Below, in pieces: positions 14,076-40,360 of a DNA stretch of 55,245 bases. Numbering within the stretch: the stretch's first letter is position 1; each line of letters begins with the position of its first letter. The translations under genes were made by a program, and so were the position numbers. Source of the DNA: a virus (lineage: Duplodnaviria > Caudoviricetes); IMG/VR virus record IMGVR_UViG_3300017653_000203, positions 1 through 55,245 of that record. One strand, given 5' to 3'. The notes beneath the pieces are model-generated. The model ran no database searches, was not told where the DNA came from, and saw only the letters and a list, made by a program, of their open reading frames with translations.

Positions 14076-15251
14076 ATGGCGAAATTGGACGTTGTAATTC
14101 CGAGTGCGGACATAGAGGTACGGCAGGCTGACGGTAGTACCGTGAAATACCGGAAGGTTGGTCGTCCCGCGCGCGTAGGTGACGTTGTGAGATCCCTAGA
14201 AACGGACGATGGAATTACGAAGGATGCGTTCTACGAAGTTACTGGCAGCGGTGGTGGATACGTAGAGTTCTACGATAATGACGGCGACGAACGTTATCGT
14301 GACGTAGAAGATTACGAAGTATACGAAAAAGTCGCCGACTCATCTGATATCGTTACGCACGAAGGCCGTCAATACCGTAAGGTGAAGCGGAAGGCGAACG
14401 TTGGCGAACTCGTTTATAGCGAAACTGGCGGAAAGGTGTACACGGTATCGGCGGATGTCGAGTTAGATGACGACAAGCTCTCTGTCGGATACGTTAACGG
14501 GGCAATGCACCGTTTATCCGTTCTCGAACCGTTAACTAGCGATAAGCCGATCGAGCATCCGAAGCCTGACCGTTTGAAAGTCGGCGAATATGCGAAGGCC
14601 GCAGGTCCGCAGAGAAACGCTTTGTACCGCAAAGAAGGCGATTATGTGAAAATCGTCGAGGATGACAGAAGCAGCCGTCCGTTTAGAACGGAGCATCTCG
14701 ACGGAAGTATCGCAGGCTGGGCGTACGAGTCCGATTTAGTCCGCGCTACGGCCGACGAAGTTGCCGCTGCGCTCCGTAAAGTTGACGCGCCAAAACCGAA
14801 GTTGGCCCGCATCCCCGTCGGCAGCTACGTTAAAATTCTGACGGATTCCGAAACATTACCGGAGGGCGCTATCGCTAAAGTAACGCGCGACGATGGAGAA
14901 TACGATATTTGGCCGTACAAATGTGAACTACTTGACGGAAGCAACTACGATTGGTATAAGCCGGAACAAATCGAAGCGGTAACGGAAGAGGTCGTGAAAT
15001 GGGCGGCAATCGGACGTAATGTTAACGAGTATAAGACGGGAGACGTCGTTGAAGTAACGAGATCGACCGGTTATGTGCTGGTAGGCTCTATCGGCGTAAT
15101 CGGTAAATACGACAGTAACGATAGTTTCCGCGTGAACACTTTCGAACGTACTGGCTGTAACTGGCACGGATCGAAAGACGTTAAACTCGTCGTTCCAGTC
15201 GAGCAACGTTTCGACACACGTAGCGAAGCCGACTTTCCGTACGCGTCATGA
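14076..15251 (+). CDS. Multi-module protein with repeated SH3/KOW-like units
   Basis: Repeats YRKVGRPARVGD, YRKVKRKANVGE, LKVGEYAK, IPVGSYVKI, YKTGDVVEV. Confidence 0.75.
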   Translation: MAKLDVVIPSADIEVRQADGSTVKYRKVGRPARVGDVVRSLETDDGITKDAFYEVTGSGGGYVEFYDNDGDERYRDVEDYEVYEKVADSSDIVTHEGRQYRKVKRKANVGELVYSETGGKVYTVSADVELDDDKLSVGYVNGAMHRLSVLEPLTSDKPIEHPKPDRLKVGEYAKAAGPQRNALYRKEGDYVKIVEDDRSSRPFRTEHLDGSIAGWAYESDLVRATADEVAAALRKVDAPKPKLARIPVGSYVKILTDSETLPEGAIAKVTRDDGEYDIWPYKCELLDGSNYDWYKPEQIEAVTEEVVKWAAIGRNVNEYKTGDVVEVTRSTGYVLVGSIGVIGKYDSNDSFRVNTFERTGCNWHGSKDVKLVVPVEQRFDTRSEADFPYAS

Positions 15252-17068
15252 ACATTACGCTCTCGTTAAACAAACGCAACGAGTCAACAGCGGCAACCGC
15301 AACAGCAGTAAAGAACGCAGTTAAACGGAAGCAGGCGGCGGTTCCCGAAACGGCGGCCGAGGCGTTCGAGCGAATCGGTAAGATGGCGTTATCCGATAAG
15401 GAACGAACCGCATACGAAGCAGCCCGCCGCGCGCACAAAGACGGACGAATAGGCAACGTCCGATCCGACGGCGCAAAGTGGACGAAAAGCGACGTTGTTA
15501 CCGCGGGCTATCGCTTACTAGCGGATAAGGCGGAAGCAGAACGGGCAGGGCGGATGCGTTCCGTCCTCGCCTCGAAGCCGCCGAACTACCGTATTCTAAC
15601 GGATGATTCCGAGCTGCCTGCGTTTGTTGACCGGTTGCGGCTCGAATGTAAACGACAGATGACGGAGTGGCGCGACCGGTTCAAGGCGCTAGCCGTCGAT
15701 ACGATGACGGCGGGCGACTTCGAGGGTACCGGAGTTGATACGTATATCGATTTATCGATCGGATTTTCGATATGGCTTCCGCTACTTAACGAAGGCTATT
15801 ATCTGCCGTACGGACACGTTGATATGTATAACGGCGGCAGCCCGGCGGAAAGCTTCGAGTTTCTAACGGAAGAGTCGGCGTTTAAGGCGTCCAACCCGCA
15901 GCTCACGCGCTCGAAGGTAATCGAAGCGATTTCGCCATATCTCCGCCGTCCGAATCACGGCAAAACGTTTCATATGGGAAGCGCCCGTTACGATTTGCAC
16001 GTCGCGATAAAGGATGGGTACGAAATCGCCGGCTGCGTATGGGACACGCTCGACGCCATGCGGCATTTGAATGAACACGAACCGTCTTACGGTTTGAAAT
16101 CGCTCGTCGCGAAGTACGGCGCTCTTTTCGGCGTGCCTGGTCCGATATTCACGTTCGAGGACTTATTCGGTAACCGTTCGCCGGCGCCATTCAATACGGA
16201 GTTGGTCGGCATCTACGCCATAAACGACGTACTTTATGGATGGAAACTGTTCGAATGGCAATACACTGCAATGGCGGCAGCACCTTCCGCAAACGGAAAA
16301 GGCCGGTTACTAGAATGTTACGCGAAGATTGACTCGAAGCTTCCGGAAACCGACGTGTTCCTTGCGCGATGTGGCTTCGAAATTGACCGGGCGGGGCTGG
16401 CGCGACTCGAAGCGGAATTTACGCCAAAACTCGAAGAAGCGCGGGCGGCCGTTATTGAATCGTACGGCATTGACGCGGCGTTCGTACGTAGGATGGATCG
16501 TACGTTGAATAAGCGCAAGCTTGACGACTGGATAACGGCGCAGCAACGGAAGATTTCGGCGAAGGCCGACCGGATTGCGAAGCTTAAAGCGGATATGGCT
16601 GCGGACGAGGCGGCAGGCAAAACGCATCTTAAACGGTATACGCAAAACGCCGCGAAGCTTGCCGAATTGGAGACGGAGAATTTACTACCAGCCGACGAAA
16701 AGCACGCGCCGCTATTTACCGATTCGTTTTCGATTACGAACGGAAATCACCTCGCGTATCTGATTTATGACCATCTCGGAATCAGCGACCGGACAAGCCA
16801 ATTTAAGCGAGGCAAGACGCGGAGTACGGCGGCCGACGTACTCGACGCTTATTACGAAGAGGAAGAGGCGCTGAAACCGCTGGCGACCGTTGCGGCATAC
16901 GAAAAATTGCTGAATACGTACGTGACGAAGATTCCGGCGGCGGTCGAGGCGGACGGGCGGCTGCATTCGGAGTTTAAAGCGGGCGGTACGGCGACGGGGC
17001 GTTATTCGAGCGCAGGGTATAGCGGACGGCCGGTCGATATATTACGAGAATTTGAGACGGAGGGATGA
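15248..17068 (+). CDS. Family A DNA polymerase, N-terminal subunit (3'-5' exonuclease, thumb, start of palm)
   Basis: ExoI DFEGTG, ExoII RYDL, ExoIII YAINDV, KLLNTY, DGRLH...TATGRYSS. Confidence 0.92.
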   Translation: MNITLSLNKRNESTAATATAVKNAVKRKQAAVPETAAEAFERIGKMALSDKERTAYEAARRAHKDGRIGNVRSDGAKWTKSDVVTAGYRLLADKAEAERAGRMRSVLASKPPNYRILTDDSELPAFVDRLRLECKRQMTEWRDRFKALAVDTMTAGDFEGTGVDTYIDLSIGFSIWLPLLNEGYYLPYGHVDMYNGGSPAESFEFLTEESAFKASNPQLTRSKVIEAISPYLRRPNHGKTFHMGSARYDLHVAIKDGYEIAGCVWDTLDAMRHLNEHEPSYGLKSLVAKYGALFGVPGPIFTFEDLFGNRSPAPFNTELVGIYAINDVLYGWKLFEWQYTAMAAAPSANGKGRLLECYAKIDSKLPETDVFLARCGFEIDRAGLARLEAEFTPKLEEARAAVIESYGIDAAFVRRMDRTLNKRKLDDWITAQQRKISAKADRIAKLKADMAADEAAGKTHLKRYTQNAAKLAELETENLLPADEKHAPLFTDSFSITNGNHLAYLIYDHLGISDRTSQFKRGKTRSTAADVLDAYYEEEEALKPLATVAAYEKLLNTYVTKIPAAVEADGRLHSEFKAGGTATGRYSSAGYSGRPVDILREFETEG

Positions 17069-17072
17069 ACGG

Positions 17073-17291
17073 ATGAAGATCGAGAAAGGTAGCGCATTAG
17101 GTTACGAATACACCGCACATTTGACGGGAGACGAACTTCGTACATTATCGCTAATTCTTGGCGCGACAAGTCCGGACAAAGTAGATTCATTAGTAAAACG
17201 AGAGGGTTGGGAGCCGGAGTCATTCGTCGAGGATGGCGGTTGGGAGATGTACAACGAAATGGAAGATGCGTTAAATGCTGACGGTAACTGA
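17073..17291 (+). CDS. Small acidic protein inserted between the two polymerase halves
   Basis: GGAGG RBS, ATG 17073, 72 aa; overlaps the start of the C-terminal half. Confidence 0.65.
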   Translation: MKIEKGSALGYEYTAHLTGDELRTLSLILGATSPDKVDSLVKREGWEPESFVEDGGWEMYNEMEDALNADGN

Positions 17292-18363
17292 CGTCAACTA
17301 TCACGCAATCGTTCGTAAACTTATCGCCGACGACCGCAAGGTTCCGAAGGGGACGAATCTGCAGAACATGCCGTCAAAGGGCGGCGGCGTCCTCGTCCGA
17401 AATCAATTCGTTCCCCGCGCAGGCTATACGTTCGTCGGCGCCGACCTCGGACAAATAGAACCGCGTATCATGGCGCATATCATGTACGTGGAATATGGCG
17501 ATAACTCTATGCGGCAGATTTTCGTCGACGGCACGGACTTGTACACGTCAATGGCGATGATGACGTTCGGACTTGACGAAGAGTATTGCGTTGACAAAGC
17601 GTACGATCCGACGGGCACGTTTAAGCCCCGCGCCATGATGAAAACCGGACAGCTCGCGGTATCTTACGACCAGTCGCCACGTTCCTTTGCGAAGAAAATG
17701 GGCGTAACAGACGACGTCGCCGCGATGTTCTTCGAAAACTTCGACCGGACATTTCCGTCGTTCCGGCAAATGGTTGCCGATATCCGTGATTTCATGCGAA
17801 TCAACGGTTACGTCGAAACGCTGTACGGACGGAAGCGCCGTTTTCCGGACTATAAATCGGTAGCCGCCGAACAGCAACGTAATGAGCAGCGGTTGATCCG
17901 GCTGTATACCGAGCGGAAAGCGTTGCGGAATCGAACGATATTAACGCCGCGCGACGCCGAACGGTTGCAACGAGTCCAGGACGAAATCGACATACTGGCG
18001 GAGAAGCGCGGACTAATCGGATATTGGGATCGGGCGGCATTTAACGCGGTGATTCAAGGAACCGGCGCGGACATTCTGAAAATGAACGGTAACCGTAACT
18101 CGCGGATATGCAAGGAACGCGGATGGGAGTTTAACGCGTCAATCCACGACGAAATTAAGAACTCGATTCCTAACGCGGATTTGACGGAGGGCACTATCGA
18201 GCTAATCGACGATATCATGACGGGAACGTGCGGACCAGACTTAACGGTTCCTCTCGTAACGGATATCGTAATCGAGCCTCGTTGGATGCAGGAGTTCGCG
18301 CCGGAAGAGTGGGATTTCACAGCGTGCCGGCCGAAAGCGGAGTATGCGAATAAATACGAATGA
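17275..18363 (+). CDS. Family A DNA polymerase, C-terminal subunit (palm and fingers)
   Basis: NLQNMP, motif A ADLGQIEPR, motif B RAMMKTGQLAVSY, NAVIQGTGAD, motif C IHDE. Confidence 0.92.
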   Translation: MLTVTDVNYHAIVRKLIADDRKVPKGTNLQNMPSKGGGVLVRNQFVPRAGYTFVGADLGQIEPRIMAHIMYVEYGDNSMRQIFVDGTDLYTSMAMMTFGLDEEYCVDKAYDPTGTFKPRAMMKTGQLAVSYDQSPRSFAKKMGVTDDVAAMFFENFDRTFPSFRQMVADIRDFMRINGYVETLYGRKRRFPDYKSVAAEQQRNEQRLIRLYTERKALRNRTILTPRDAERLQRVQDEIDILAEKRGLIGYWDRAAFNAVIQGTGADILKMNGNRNSRICKERGWEFNASIHDEIKNSIPNADLTEGTIELIDDIMTGTCGPDLTVPLVTDIVIEPRWMQEFAPEEWDFTACRPKAEYANKYE

Positions 18364-33010: not shown

Positions 33011-33400
33011 ATGGACTTGACGAAGCAAACTCGGAAATACACGGAGAGCTATACGCTTTCTACGGCGGCCGGCGTTAAAGCGCTGCTCCGCGACCGGCAT
33101 CGGATTGCGGCACGCCGATTCAAGGGCGATACGGCGGCGTCCGACATATTGATCGATTTACACTCCGCTATCAATTCCGCCGGCTTAACGGATCGGCAAA
33201 CGGAGGCGGTGGCGTGGGTGTACGGAGTGGACGTGACGCAAGCGGAGGCGGCCCGGATTATGGGGATTACGCGAGAAGGCGTAAAGAACCTCGTAAATGA
33301 AGCGGTAGAACGTGTCGCTGCGGTTTATGAACGTTGGGAATACGGCGAGGTTACGGTAGAAGGCGAAAGCCCGTTCGAAATCGGAAAGGTGGCGGCTTAA
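33011..33400 (+). CDS. Sigma70 region-4-like HTH regulator
   Basis: LTDRQTEAV...TQAEAARIMGITREGV. Confidence 0.8.
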   Translation: MDLTKQTRKYTESYTLSTAAGVKALLRDRHRIAARRFKGDTAASDILIDLHSAINSAGLTDRQTEAVAWVYGVDVTQAEAARIMGITREGVKNLVNEAVERVAAVYERWEYGEVTVEGESPFEIGKVAA

Positions 33401-35113: not shown

Positions 35114-35452
35114 TTACGCTTCGAATCCCGCACCTTCAATATCCCGGATCGGGAACCATTCACCGTCAACCATAAAGCGCTTATTGATCGGGTCTACTCG
35201 ATCCACAACCCCGACTATCTGTAAATCCTCAAATGGATGATACATTTTTATTGCAATTAGCCTGCGCTGCTGCATCGACTCGTAAACGATCCTTGATATA
35301 TCCTGCCATTCCTGGTCATCAAGCTCTATCCGCTGGCGGCGTTTGAGCTCTTTAAAATTTTCGTTCAACGCAATCTTATGCTCCGGCAGCATCATCCGGG
35401 ACGATTCCCAAAATCCGTTGCCCGTCAATTTCTTAGAGTCCTTCGTTAACAT
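35114..35452 (-). CDS. YolD-like protein
   Basis: KKLTGNGFWESSRMMLPEHK...ELDDQEWQDI. Confidence 0.85.
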   Translation of the reverse strand: MLTKDSKKLTGNGFWESSRMMLPEHKIALNENFKELKRRQRIELDDQEWQDISRIVYESMQQRRLIAIKMYHPFEDLQIVGVVDRVDPINKRFMVDGEWFPIRDIEGAGFEA

Positions 35453-35927: not shown

Positions 35928-36443
35928 ATGTCCAACGTAATTGATACGTCAACAGGAGAAATCATAGACGAAGTAAATGCGCGTCATTTTCGGAACAGCA
36001 CATCGGAGGCTCAACGCGTTGTAATGGACGTTCAGCCTGGCGATCAAGTTAACGTAGGCAAGCCGAAGAAATTCGCCCGCGCCGCCGAGTTTACGATGGT
36101 ATTCCACGGCAGTACGCGCGAGTTAGTCCGTTCGAAGGCGTTAAGTGACGATGAAAAATCGCTGCTATTTTCGTTACTCATATACCTTGACTACGACCAA
36201 TATGTAAAGGACGAAGAGCGGTTCTTCTTCAACGTTAACCGAGCGGCGGAGTTGATGGGATGGTCGCGACACCGTTGCGGACGGGTACTCGAAGCGCTCC
36301 GGAAACAACGGCTGATAGGCGTTACAAGCGTCGGCCGCGCGAAATATTACATGCTAAATCCGGCGTTCATTTACCGCGGCGATACGTCGGGGCACGAGTC
36401 AGCCGTTAAACTATTCGAACAGGCCGCGGTCGATGACGAGTGA
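35928..36443 (+). CDS. RepL-like winged-helix protein
   Basis: HTH-like segment followed by YYMLNPAFIYRG, reminiscent of Firmicute RepL; AAAGGAG RBS. Confidence 0.6.
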   Translation: MSNVIDTSTGEIIDEVNARHFRNSTSEAQRVVMDVQPGDQVNVGKPKKFARAAEFTMVFHGSTRELVRSKALSDDEKSLLFSLLIYLDYDQYVKDEERFFFNVNRAAELMGWSRHRCGRVLEALRKQRLIGVTSVGRAKYYMLNPAFIYRGDTSGHESAVKLFEQAAVDDE

Positions 36444-36452
36444 GAACGGTTC

Positions 36453-36496
36453 TAATGGAATGCCAGCGTACCATTAATGGAATGCTAGCGTACCAT
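36453..36496 (+). repeat. Two tandem 22-bp quasi-palindromic repeats
   Basis: TAATGGAATGCCAGCGTACCAT / TAATGGAATGCTAGCGTACCAT, bracketed by TTCTAATGG...CCATTAGAA. Confidence 0.9.
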
Positions 36497-36499
36497 TAG

Positions 36500-37330
36500 A
36501 ATTCCCGCGAAGCCGCACCGTTACGCGATTTCGGGCATTTTCGCCTTCTTATCCCAAGGAAAACGAAAACAAACGAAAGTAATCGCGTCGTCGGCTTCGC
36601 CTTCCTAGCGAACAAGTTCCGCGGCAAAAACGGCCTTGATACTTGTAATATCGGATACGTCATACTTTAATCGTACGATAGGAGCTTACGTATAAGGTAT
36701 TCCGACGACGCGGCAGCGGCGGAGGACAAGGAGGCGTAGCCGACACGTAAGGCTCTTTAGCTCGCGTCAAGTCGATACGACTTATCGATGAGCCTTTCAT
36801 TTGTTCCCGTCAATGCTTTGCATTGTTCGCGAACCTACGTAATACACACCGTACGGTACCGATAGGCTACCGTTGTAACCTTCGCAATTAACGTAGCGTT
36901 CTACGTTGCTATTATAGTAGCGATATTTTACGTAGGGATTACGAAGGGTTACGGAGGTAATGGCGTAACGGTGACGGAGGGAATAGCGTTCGGTTACGAA
37001 TGGGTAACGAAATGATTACGATACATTTGCAGCGCGGCTCTGACCGGACGGCCTTCGGAAACTCACGGGGTCGGACGTAGACTAACGTCTAATTCCGTCT
37101 ATTTCGTTTGTACTATTACGTATATTTGGCGGGTGAATCCCGGATGGTAGCGGTCGATAGCTGACGTGGAACGGTAAGAATGGCGTAACGGTGCGGGTTG
37201 GCAGCGATTGAGGCTGCGGAGTACTACTTCGTAAAATACGGATTTTGTGAAGTAGTACTTCGTGCTTTAACGCACGAAAGCGTCGCCCCCAACGGGTACC
37301 CGCGCAGGCGGTTCGGTAACCGTAAATAGT
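36500..37330 (+). ncRNA. Candidate large structured RNA (or structured origin/packaging DNA)
   Basis: No credible ORF; many local and long-range stems, several with G-U pairs on + strand. Confidence 0.45.
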
Positions 37331-37375
37331 TAGCGTACAATTTTTTAAACTCAATACGTTAAGGAGGCGTTAGCA

Positions 37376-38020
37376 ATTACGAAACAATGCGCAACATGTG
37401 GCGGAAGCGTACCTGACGTTAAATTTTCCCGTAATCATAAGCATTGCAATCGGTGCCGTAGCGTAAAGTCGCGCACATACATAGCGGAGTATCAACGTAA
37501 ACGACGTGCTTCGTTAACCGAAGAGGAACGCGAGGCAGAACGTCAGAGAACGCGTAAATACCGCGAAGAGAATCCGCACTTAACGTTCTTTACTACATCG
37601 CGTTACCTGGCGAATAAAGCCGGTGTTGCTTCCGACTTAACGCAGGAGGACGCTTACGACATATATTACACGGCTGACGCTTGCTCATATTGCGGAAGAA
37701 CACCGGAGGAAGCAGCCGAAAAACGATCGTTCAGTATCGATCATATTATCCCGATGATACAAGGCGGTCCGAACAGCCGCTGGAACCTTACGAAAGTATG
37801 TAACGGTTGTAACTCGTCAAAAAGCTCCGCCTCGCTCGCAGACTTCCGTAGCCGGACGCCGGAGTTTACGGATGAACGTTACCAAGCGGTAATCTCCGCA
37901 ATGGCTACGTTATCCGGTAAGTCGCCGGAATACATTGACGAATTGTTAACGCAATCGGCCGAATTTGAAGCGGCATACCAGCGTGAGCGGGCACGGATGG
38001 AGTCGTTGCTCGCCGCATAA
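37376..38020 (+). CDS. HNH endonuclease with N-terminal Zn finger and Arg-rich helix (214 aa)
   Basis: AAGGAGG-8 nt-ATT; CATC...CNRC, CSYCG, DHIIP...GG...N...CNGCNSSK; the ORF track shows only the last 88 aa. Confidence 0.85.
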   Translation: MTKQCATCGGSVPDVKFSRNHKHCNRCRSVKSRTYIAEYQRKRRASLTEEEREAERQRTRKYREENPHLTFFTTSRYLANKAGVASDLTQEDAYDIYYTADACSYCGRTPEEAAEKRSFSIDHIIPMIQGGPNSRWNLTKVCNGCNSSKSSASLADFRSRTPEFTDERYQAVISAMATLSGKSPEYIDELLTQSAEFEAAYQRERARMESLLAA

Positions 38021-38137: not shown

Positions 38138-38575
38138 ATGTCCGAGGCAAAACGGAAGAGGCTCGAAGCACGATTAGACGGCAGGCAGCGGGTCGCGGCA
38201 TTGGCATGCGTTGAACGCGAATTTGCCGCCGAAGCCGACCGGAAAACGTTCGACATCATTGCAGAAGAAGCCGGAGTCTCACGTAACACGCTTTACGAAT
38301 GGCGGACGCAGAACCGTGCATTCATCGATTATATGAACGCTATTTCCGACGATTTCCTTGCCGGTAAGCGTGCGGTTGTATATCGGAGGCTTATGCAGCT
38401 TATCGATAGCAGTCAGCCGTCCGTTAAGGCGATCGACCTGTATATGAAACGCGAGGGCTTAATTACGGCGAAAGTTGAAGTCGATACGAAGGAGTCCGGA
38501 TCGTTACCGAAATCGAACGATGAGTTAGCGTCCGAATTGGCGGAACTGGACGCGTTATTGAACGAAGATAAATAA
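38138..38575 (+). CDS. terS: Terminase small subunit (HTH type)
   Basis: IAEEAGVSRNTLYEW HTH, SVKAIDLY; directly upstream of terL. Confidence 0.8.
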   Translation: MSEAKRKRLEARLDGRQRVAALACVEREFAAEADRKTFDIIAEEAGVSRNTLYEWRTQNRAFIDYMNAISDDFLAGKRAVVYRRLMQLIDSSQPSVKAIDLYMKREGLITAKVEVDTKESGSLPKSNDELASELAELDALLNEDK

Positions 38576-38599: not shown

Positions 38600-40360
38600 G
38601 TGGCGTGGATTGACGGCGAATGGCTCGGACGTGAAGCGCGCGCCGACCGTATCGAGCTCGTCACGGAACGGGCGAAGAAACTCCGGACGCTAATCGAAAA
38701 GGGCCGGGCGACGGACTATCACGTTGAATCGTACCGGGCGTCAGTGGCGGAATTAAAACGGCTCGTCCGGATACACCGCGGCGAGGTTGATGTCGCTTAT
38801 TTTACGTATGAATACCTATCCGACGGCGGCAACGCGGATAACGACGACAATATCATACGGAACGCCGACGACGGGCGGCAGCACGACGAACTCGCGGATA
38901 TAGCGCATATCCATCGCGAGTTTTTTGATTTATGCGATTACGTCAACGAGACGGAGCGGAACGCTAGGTTAGCGATAGCGGCGGCCCGCGGACATTCGAA
39001 ATCCGGTATGTTTTCGAACAGTTTTCCGCTGCATCAAATTGCATACCGGCGGCGGCATTATATTCTCGTCATATCGGAAACGGACGGGCTGGCGAAGAAA
39101 CTAATCGGATGGGTCAATAAGCAACTTAAATTTAACGCTAAGTTCCGTGAGGACTTTGGACCGTTATTGAACGAAAAGAACACGCAAAATGAACGCGACA
39201 ACGAAGAGGCGTTTATTACGGCGTCGGGCGCGCTGGTTGAAGCGTCATCGTCCGGCAAGCAACTCCGCGGTAAGCGTCACGGAAGCCGGCGGCCGGATCT
39301 CGTTATCGTCGACGATCCCTCATCGCAGAACAACGAAGGCACGAAGGAAGCACGGGAAAAGCTCGTACACTGGTTTAACTCCGTTGTCGTACCTATTGGT
39401 ACCGCCGGTACAGCGATTATTCTCGTCGGCACGATGGTAAGCGCGACAGGCCTGCTGAATCACGTATTGAAGCGGAGGGACTTCAAGTCATCGTTTCATG
39501 GCGCTGTTATACAAGAACCGGATAATCCGAAGCTATGGGACGAATACCTCGAAATTTACGGGCGCGCCGAGGATATGGCGGAAGTGGACGAGTTTTACGA
39601 AGCGAACCGCGAAGCGTTAGAAGCCGGCGTGAAATTAGCGTGGCCGTGGCGGTGGACGTATCGGGCGCTCATGCACGAAAAGTTTAACATGAAAACGCGC
39701 GCATTCAATTCGGAATTCCGGAATTTGGCGTTTAGTGAGGACGAGCAATTCTTCTTCCCGGAGAATTTCAGCAAGTACCGTTATGAGTACGAAGGCGAGC
39801 GGCGGTTTATTCGATACGAGGATATGCGGATACCGGTCGAAGATTTAACGATAAGCGGCGCGTGGGATATAGCGCTCGGAAAGAACGCGCGGAGCTGTTA
39901 TAACGCTGTCGTTACCGTCGGCCGCTACGAAAAGACCGGTCACATTTTCGTGCTTGACGTTTACGCATCGAAAGAGCCGGCGCACGTTTATATCGATTTA
40001 ATTATCGAGAAAATGCGGCAATGGCGGTATCATATCTTTTCGGTCGAGACGATTAACGCGCAGCACGAATTTTATCGGCAACTACAAGAAGCGGCGCGGA
40101 AGGCCGGAATCACGCGGACGAAAATCAACGATGTGAAGTCGTATAAATCGTCAAAAGAAGATCGGATCGAATCGCTCGAACCGCTGTGTCACAATAAAAC
40201 GCTGATATTTAACGATAGCCATACGATACTGCTCGATCAAATGGCGCAGTATCCGTTCGGCGATTTCGTGGATGCGATTGATGCGCTGCAGCTTTCGGTT
40301 GAACACGTTGCGCGGGCGAAGAAGGTTGTACGGAATAAGCCGGCGATGTTTTATCGGTAA
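38600..40360 (+). CDS. terL: Terminase large subunit
   Basis: ARGHSKS, LVIVDD, VGT coupling motif, AWDIA and DFVDA nuclease motifs. Confidence 0.93.
   Translation: MAWIDGEWLGREARADRIELVTERAKKLRTLIEKGRATDYHVESYRASVAELKRLVRIHRGEVDVAYFTYEYLSDGGNADNDDNIIRNADDGRQHDELADIAHIHREFFDLCDYVNETERNARLAIAAARGHSKSGMFSNSFPLHQIAYRRRHYILVISETDGLAKKLIGWVNKQLKFNAKFREDFGPLLNEKNTQNERDNEEAFITASGALVEASSSGKQLRGKRHGSRRPDLVIVDDPSSQNNEGTKEAREKLVHWFNSVVVPIGTAGTAIILVGTMVSATGLLNHVLKRRDFKSSFHGAVIQEPDNPKLWDEYLEIYGRAEDMAEVDEFYEANREALEAGVKLAWPWRWTYRALMHEKFNMKTRAFNSEFRNLAFSEDEQFFFPENFSKYRYEYEGERRFIRYEDMRIPVEDLTISGAWDIALGKNARSCYNAVVTVGRYEKTGHIFVLDVYASKEPAHVYIDLIIEKMRQWRYHIFSVETINAQHEFYRQLQEAARKAGITRTKINDVKSYKSSKEDRIESLEPLCHNKTLIFNDSHTILLDQMAQYPFGDFVDAIDALQLSVEHVARAKKVVRNKPAMFYR

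Follow-up and report, generated by a model that had tools for sequence, protein, structure and literature searches.

A probable composite DNA control region with a predicted terminal repeat before the packaging genes of a Paenibacillus prophage

Phages of the Halcyone cluster, which infect Paenibacillus larvae, package their DNA by direct terminal repeats of 377–378 bp. In their published description, the repeats were determined as sharply bounded regions of double coverage with pile-ups of read starts (PMC6070908). Here we describe a long gap before the packaging genes of a Paenibacillus prophage, the 55,245-nt IMG/VR provirus record IMGVR_UViG_3300017653_000203 (the window), in which nearly all genes lie on the + strand. 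The gap (36444–37375, 932 nt) is the window's longest stretch without a long open reading frame (ORF). A preliminary description had proposed about 830 nt of it as a candidate for a single new large structured non-coding RNA. We consider that the gap is probably a composite region working at the DNA level, with regulator sites, a variable spacer and a terminal repeat with its cutting sites. A second system of comparison is the T7-type concatemer junction, a short non-coding terminal repeat that has promoters and palindromes near its boundaries and is transcribed across.

Searches with the flanking proteins in viral and genome collections gave 31 loci, some of which are one contig region fetched twice. 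The gap is 0.4–1.36 kb long, ORF-poor and syntenic after the upstream winged-helix gene in 10 further loci in which the next packaging gene could be placed, and its sequence is mosaic among these loci. Pieces of the 3′ half are found again in many loci, ahead of HNH or terS, and a module of ∼480 nt (36888–37370) is conserved upstream of this type of terS/terL. Thirteen loci align over about 355 nt, where invariant blocks are split by variable stretches. The stretch had been described as non-coding, and this holds: tblastx against the relatives scored alike in six frames, and the short ORFs had no Pfam or PHROG match.

In the alignment, block 1 (37022–37071) reads TACAT..TGC..CGGC..GACCGGA-N10-AAACTCACGGGGT and is the predicted left-end cutting site. 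Its 13-mer AAACTCACGGGGT (37059–37071) is invariant in the aligned non-redundant loci save for one A/G position, an invariance that is partly by construction because some loci were retrieved with a pattern containing the 13-mer. In the 55-kb window the 13-mer occurs only once, even when up to 2 mismatches are allowed. This fits a unique site and not a repeated promoter motif, and on the same ground we rejected the 13-mer as a repeated late promoter for a phage sigma factor. The pattern CCGGA-N10-11-AAACTCRCGGGGT retrieved 19 viral loci; 17 carry terS 388–1242 nt downstream and the other 2 are unrelated. When metagenome contigs were scanned, 67 matches were found, 13 with a module-profile match at E<1e-3 (7 of these over most of the module) and 54 with none. 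As a search tool, the left-site pattern gives few false matches in the viral collection and many in metagenome contigs. One contig of 151 nt (run X1, record 6) shares the left-site block over 37035–37079 and then diverges, which shows a second phage with the same left site in the same sample.

Three further features lie downstream of block 1. Block 3 (37178–37199, GAATGGCGTAACGGTGCGGGTT) is conserved in 13/13 aligned modules. A long imperfect palindrome found by repeat finding and folding follows at 37217–37262; only its AAAA/TTTT apex is conserved, as sequence. Blocks 6–7 (37286–37366) consist of CCCCCAACGGG and then GGTTCGGTAACCGT..GCGTACAATTTTTTAAACTC. They were defined in an alignment of 11 loci, their profile was found in 15/18 segments, and they form the predicted right-end region, which abuts the first packaging gene.

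The large terminase subunit (TerL) of the window shares 40% identity over 99% of its length with those of Tripp, Halcyone and Unity, three Halcyone-cluster phages of P. larvae. The gene order (methylase, sigma factor and, further on, the packaging genes) and a split family-A polymerase also match Tripp, whose 378-bp repeat lies inside a largely gene-free stretch of ∼1.4 kb before terL. We found the conserved blocks of the module in this repeat. Block 1 aligns to its first 32 nt, and the profile of the left block, built from 17 loci, had its two best matches in the 54,439-nt Tripp genome at both repeat starts (E 0.37 and 0.64). The whole-module profile gave its best matches (E 0.014 and 0.02) at repeat positions 101–147, where the palindrome apex sequence also occurs, and weaker ones at 6–32 and 346–378. 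To the last of these the CCCCCAAGGG block aligns. The three blocks are colinear and on the same strand. At the repeat start, Tripp reads TACATCC|CTTGCGCAGTCCTGACGGAAGGTCCTCCGAAACT, and the left block of the window similarly reads TACATTT|GCAGCGCGGCTCTGACCGGACGGCCTTCGGAAACT. In 100 dinucleotide-shuffled Tripp genomes, three colinear matches within 450 nt never occurred, and the best score was reached in 3. The same blocks are present in Halcyone and C7Cdelta. Block order, strand and coincidence with both Tripp boundaries would be hard to obtain by chance.

Transfer of the Tripp repeat boundaries to the window puts the left end at 37029 and the right end near 37316. We therefore predict that the prophage carries one copy of a direct terminal repeat of about 290 bp (37029–37316, right end ±10 nt). 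The composite reading builds on sequence conservation and synteny, on the lack of both coding sequence and a conserved fold, and on colinear similarity to a repeat whose ends have been determined; the cut positions, protein sites and promoter activity that go with it are predictions. The preliminary description had offered a pac region as one alternative. On the comparative evidence this was essentially right for the 3′ half, while the gap as a whole appears composite.

A repeat array of the TTACG/GGTTACG type lies just left of the predicted repeat, at 36928–37021 (Tandem Repeats Finder period 11, 2.9 copies), and includes a direct 15-mer copy at 36959–36973. TTACG/CGTAA is enriched 2.4-fold, and GGTTACG-N4-GGTTACGGAGG is partly conserved. 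In the modules of relatives, GGTTACG-type repeats sit between a −10-like box and the left block. We take this array as a candidate binding array for the small terminase subunit.

Under the composite reading, packaging would proceed as follows. The small terminase would bind the repeat array left of 37029 as a landing pad, with terminase cutting at or close to each of the two sites in the concatemer. The left-end site reads TACAT|GCAG...GACCGGA-N10-AAACTCACGGGGT; at the right end, the cut would come about 20 nt after CCCCCAAxGGG. The repeat body of about 290 bp would contain the palindrome, and a conserved block would abut the first packaging gene. Sequence from 37029 to about 37316 would stand at both virion ends as a direct terminal repeat, and the prophage would keep one copy. 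The palindrome may help duplication or cutting, and a comparable role has been proposed for a palindrome in T7. Rightward transcription into the packaging genes would start from a box at 36910. Upstream, the winged-helix protein would bind two tandem dyads as a dimer, either for autoregulation or as at an origin-type iteron.

Several points weigh against this explanation. The single Tripp matches are weak (E 0.014 to 22), and the similarity had been noticed before it was tested. The right-site profile alone ranks the Tripp repeat end second, with an E of 4.2 that is not significant. Halcyone and C7Cdelta are close kin of Tripp and give no independent support. With the present module, terS and sometimes HNH follow the predicted repeat, whereas in Tripp a small-terminase-like gene with a helix-turn-helix (HTH) domain precedes it, so the two layouts differ. 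An HNH gene beside terS/terL is reportedly linked, as a rule, with cos packaging. The palindrome and several small hairpins are somewhat stabler on the + strand; the module is probably transcribed, and an added RNA role may exist. Neither among viral nor among metagenome contigs did any stop at the predicted termini. No RNA run containing the stretch is listed. The stretch was found only in low-depth contigs of two soil-metagenome runs, as short pieces that break at 36436/36460 and 37164/37158 and are uninformative on the termini.

Two observations on metagenome contigs can be added. Contig L133 begins 19 nt before a left-site pattern, but it has no module-profile match. In the soil metagenomes, one contig skips 66 nt in the YolD-like gene (35188–35255, minus strand) and has 9 differences in 60 nt; it matches a short piece only and probably comes from a related phage in the sample.

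We considered whether the module is instead a cos site, at which terminase and the adjacent HNH protein make staggered nicks near the GC-rich GACCGGA...CGGGGT to leave cohesive ends and no repeat. HNH proteins beside the terminase are needed for cos cleavage in HK97 and in staphylococcal phi12-type phages. In the window the HNH gene has terS, terL and the portal gene as neighbours, and the left-site block is GC-rich with partial dyad symmetry. Against this, the HNH gene is present in 9/18 module-bearing rows and missing from the other 9, which have the same module with terS/terL. Since half of the rows keep the module without it, HNH appears dispensable for the module's role, and the gene is probably an optional insert and no fixed part of the packaging machine. 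About 260 nt away there is another conserved site, which aligns to the opposite end of the Tripp repeat. Among characterised phages, moreover, the nearest relatives by TerL use terminal repeats (PMC6070908). We regard a cos site as unlikely.

Another explanation treats the module mainly as RNA, namely as the long 5′ leader of an HNH-terS-terL late operon. It would start from the box at 36910, and the hairpins at 37217–37262 and 37262–37279 would control elongation, stability or translation. A consensus scan found a promoter-like element at 36888–36922 on the + strand, with TTAACG, 16 nt, a TG-extended TATTAT (36910–36915) and then GTAGCG. In 16/16 module-bearing loci, G(A/T)AGCG comes after a −10-like box, 80–243 nt upstream of the 13-mer, and the element may act as a promoter. 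Nearly all genes run on the + strand. Hairpins of varying length occur in most of the 13 loci; the + strand is stabler by >1 kcal/mol in 8/13, with G-U pairs commoner there, and the minus strand is stabler in 4. In the small hairpin after the palindrome, both sides have changed in 2–4/13 sequences at five of six pairs.

The large hairpin does not bear out a leader RNA. It had been described as a 20-bp hairpin with three G-U pairs; it is present at 37217–37262, with 21-nt arms that are 86% complementary, and on the + strand it forms 22 bp, of which 4 are G-U. When the full helix was mapped on the alignment, 66.9% of cells were paired compared with 63.4% in shuffles, and 98/500 shuffles reached the covariation score, so the large hairpin is no better than shuffles. 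RNAalifold on the 13 homologous 3′-part sequences (394 columns) found only 19 pairs (−6.92 kcal/mol, covariation term +0.22). The 13 aligned modules thus showed no conserved fold and no covariation. No terminator-like U-run follows the hairpins, fold z-scores are equal for both strands, and the conserved blocks are invariant as sequence, as expected for protein sites. A leader RNA as the main role also seems unlikely to us.

The 5′ part of the gap probably has a different partner. The last gene before the gap (35928–36443, + strand) codes for a 171-aa winged-helix DNA-binding protein with 31 homologues, and it is syntenic in 11 viral loci. The protein has only weak matches to HTH_Crp_2 and ArsR (E about 0.02), and a search against solved structures gave no match. 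It had been called RepL-like. The UniRef name of a 71%-identical homologue does contain a RepL domain, but Pfam RepL was not matched even at E≤10, and the label is weakly supported.

Directly 3′ of the stop codon lie two tandem 20-bp dyad-symmetric units (36453–36496; Tandem Repeats Finder period 22, 2.1 copies). Such units occupy this position in 10/10 distinct loci, with a 22-nt period. The arms vary between loci yet stay symmetric, with 86.5% of cells paired and 8/20 pairs changed on both sides; 0/500 shuffles reached this pairing and covariation. Within each locus the two units are nearly identical. A hairpin needs no two units of the same sequence, while the two sites of a dimeric protein do, and for this reason we read the dyads as protein sites. 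They are most likely operators or iterons of the adjacent winged-helix protein, and the dyads and gene make a candidate operator-regulator pair.

The 5′ part, or the whole gap, could be a replication origin served by a RepL-like initiator, with the tandem dyads as iterons and the inverted repeats as unwinding or loading elements. The dyads co-vary with the adjacent gene in 10/10 loci, one homologue carries the RepL-domain name in UniRef, and a pyrimidine tract and further repeats lie 3′ of the dyads. These points are set against just two repeats, no AT-rich unwinding region (GC 0.49), weak generic winged-helix matches in place of a Pfam RepL match, and the phage's own primase, polymerase and clamp-like genes elsewhere. 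The 3′ half, moreover, travels with the packaging genes and not with the winged-helix gene. We judge an origin quite improbable.

The post-gene element ends in a conserved tail (36497–36586), seen in a 10-locus alignment, with a 16-nt core at 36513–36528, inverted in the window, and a pyrimidine tract CTTCTTATCCC at 36545–36555. The core is the same motif as block 3 of the packaging module (37178–37199), which supplies both the second of the two 15-nt direct repeats and the downstream arm of the long-range pair that had been noticed in the preliminary description. This perfect 14-bp inverted pair (36513–36526/37183–37196) exists, inside a 31-nt pair that is 81% complementary. As a helix it is not conserved: the core TSGCRTAAYGGCGCGG stands in direct orientation after the dyads in 8 loci (L014, L015, L016, L018, L019, L021, L012 and L017, the last a duplicate, leaving 7), where pairing with the downstream block is impossible. 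Only the window and L013 have the core inverted within conserved flanks. In L013, the closest relative, 3/16 positions of the long-range pair cannot pair even with G-U, as judged by hand from the alignment, and no inverted copy was found within 4 mismatches of the 18-mer.

The third copy of the motif, at 36959–36973, was found in the window only; it and 37179–37193 are the two 100% identical copies of the 15-nt direct repeat. In the 10 relatives in which block 3 was located, no additional copy was found at up to 4 mismatches; in 5 others the block was not located. The 14-bp long-range pair is a repeated motif and not a conserved helix.

A more limited role for RNA would be that the module is transcribed from its own promoter-like box and that this RNA, or transcription across the repeat, is required in cis for repeat duplication or terminase loading. 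If true, this would be a packaging-coupled RNA element in a temperate siphovirus, loosely like the transcription dependence of T7 concatemer processing or the phi29 pRNA. We hold it to be very improbable.

The single ∼830-nt structured RNA, in the manner of GOLLD or ROOL, drew on real features. The gap is the window's longest non-coding stretch, and the listed repeats and hairpins, several of them long inverted repeats with G-U pairs on the + strand, are present in its sequence, with one exception. The 11-bp pair 36584–36594/36702–36712 is 100% complementary, and its competitor exists as 36590–36602/36732–36744 (92% complementary). The exception is the stem 36875–36889/36937–36952, which pairs by eye with a 1-nt bulge but was not returned by the repeat finder. 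The proposed dinucleotide-shuffle check showed that the stretch folds far better than chance. Its minimum free energy on the + strand was −314.6 compared with −269.3±7.1 in 20 shuffles (z −6.4).

The minus strand folds equally well, with a z of −7.5, and since this matches the + strand the excess of pairing is not strand-specific. We scanned both strands in 200-nt windows with 22 shuffles each, including 11 coding control windows. The excess was confined to 36401–36600, 36801–37000 and 37101–37400 and was similar for both strands: local z was −5.2/−5.7 at 36401–36600, −2.3/−3.3 at 36801–37000 and −3.3/−3.8 at 37101–37300. At 36601–36900 it was only −1.7 to 0, near the range of the coding controls (−1.7 to +2.0, both strands taken together). 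The excess is greatest at the pair of palindromes at 36453–36496, just outside the start of the supposed RNA. The stretch can indeed pair, but in the way that palindromic and repeated DNA does, without strand specificity.

Conservation does not support one large RNA either. Rfam at the gathering score gave no match in the whole window, and at E≤10 over 36300–37500 it gave 4 matches, all at chance level. The preliminary description did not recognise the stretch as GOLLD or ROOL, and these scans agree, with no covariance-model match to either. Blastn of the gap against 50,697 phage records gave no match. The whole stretch is conserved in no relative among the viral loci, genome loci, 401 Paenibacillaceae genomes and phage records. 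The longest homologous match is 473 nt in a single locus, L013, which alone shares a long piece with the window (36904–37352, 68.7% identity). Fourteen of the 401 Paenibacillaceae genomes match the gap, all in patches of 26–84 nt and none within 36633–37003. Because relatives show a mosaic gap with short patches and phage records show no match, we conclude that the 830-nt unit is not conserved.

The middle 300 nt are unique to this phage. This part (36587–36885), with its competing 11-bp and 13-bp inverted repeats, had no homologue in the fetched viral and genome loci and a local z of −1.7 to 0. Its sole match in the 401 genomes was a 38-nt patch (36593–36630) in one genome, and we treat it as a putative lineage-specific spacer. 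With no Rfam match, no conserved fold in 13 homologues, no conservation of the whole, an equal excess on both strands, and a long-range pair whose motif stands in direct orientation in 8 relatives, a single new large RNA is most improbable.

Two other RNA candidates were rejected. A group I or group II intron carrying the HNH gene had no Rfam intron model match; besides, the HNH gene stands alone and has a ribosome-binding site of its own. A hammerhead or other small ribozyme at the GACCGGA...GAAAC block had no Rfam match, and its would-be core bases vary among loci.

One further pair of loci concerns the variable spacer. In one metagenome, a 41,209-nt viral contig (L011) stops 98 nt after the winged-helix gene, and an 18,233-nt viral contig (L025) starts 554 nt before a left-site pattern. 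The two may be pieces of one ∼59-kb phage, split in the spacer.

Upstream of the gap, a primase-like gene, the split family-A DNA polymerase, ribonucleotide reductase, a cytosine methylase and the small sigma factor are encoded. Between these and the gap come an ATP-dependent DNA ligase, the YolD-like gene on the minus strand and the 171-aa protein. On the 3′ side of the gap are the HNH endonuclease, terS, terL and an SPP1-type portal. The genes terS (38138–38575) and terL (38600–40360), both on the + strand, match the PHROG terminase small and large subunits, and relatives of the packaging genes, with related modules, were located in the genomes of Paenibacillus pinihumi and P. cisolokensis.

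The HNH gene (37376–38020, + strand; Pfam HNH_5 and HNH) has an apparent ATT start. Its frame is open from 37376, and no ATG, GTG or TTG lies between the in-frame stop at 37346 and 37754. The family match begins at the first residues of the protein despite the lack of a canonical start, and the sole plausible start is the ATT at 37376, 8 nt after AAGGAGG. From the alignment, the starts in relatives are apparently ATT in L003 and L007, ATC in L024 and GTG in L006; these are uncertain, and in L003 the spacing from GGAGG is only 3 nt.

Other genes can be noted. The family-A DNA polymerase is split over two adjacent ORFs (15248–17068 and 17275–18363), the first with the exonuclease and the start of the polymerase and the second with the remainder, and Tripp is annotated likewise. 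The small sigma factor (33011–33400) matches Pfam region 4 only and follows a C-5 cytosine methylase, an order identical in Tripp. The protein at 1198–2139 matches Pfam Gad1 (Gabija anti-defence 1) with an E of 3e-19.

For a group of uncultured Paenibacillus phages, this analysis sets out a conserved packaging module together with predicted boundaries of the terminal repeat. The stretch most likely resolves into ordinary DNA sites. Hairpin-rich non-coding stretches before prophage terminase genes are easily taken for new RNAs, and this one serves as a warning example: repeated motifs, along with fold z-scores that are the same for either strand, can look like a large structured RNA. It belongs to the size class of the GOLLD and ROOL RNAs of Rfam, likewise lies in a Bacillota prophage and is predicted to be highly paired, but it differs from them in having no covariance-model match, no conserved structure and no full-length conservation.

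With the HNH-dependent cos regions of HK97 and staphylococcal phi12/phiSLT, the locus shares the adjacent HNH, terS, terL and portal genes and a unique GC-rich site upstream. It differs in that HNH is missing from half of the related module loci and that the second site ∼260 nt away fits a repeat better than a single cos site. The T7 junction is similar in that one repeat copy would lie between genomes in the concatemer. This likeness is one of arrangement, and the window phage is a temperate siphovirus-like prophage with terS and not a T7-like podovirus.

The closest likeness is to the Halcyonevirus repeats of Tripp, Halcyone and C7Cdelta. Here the TerL proteins are related, the genomes are alike in size and gene order, a long gene-poor stretch ahead of the packaging genes holds the repeat, and three colinear blocks are common to both, including both repeat boundaries. 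The repeat predicted for the window is shorter, about 290 bp compared with 377–378 bp, and its ends are predictions; the invariant AAACTCACGGGGT of the window is GAAACTTTTCAG in Tripp.

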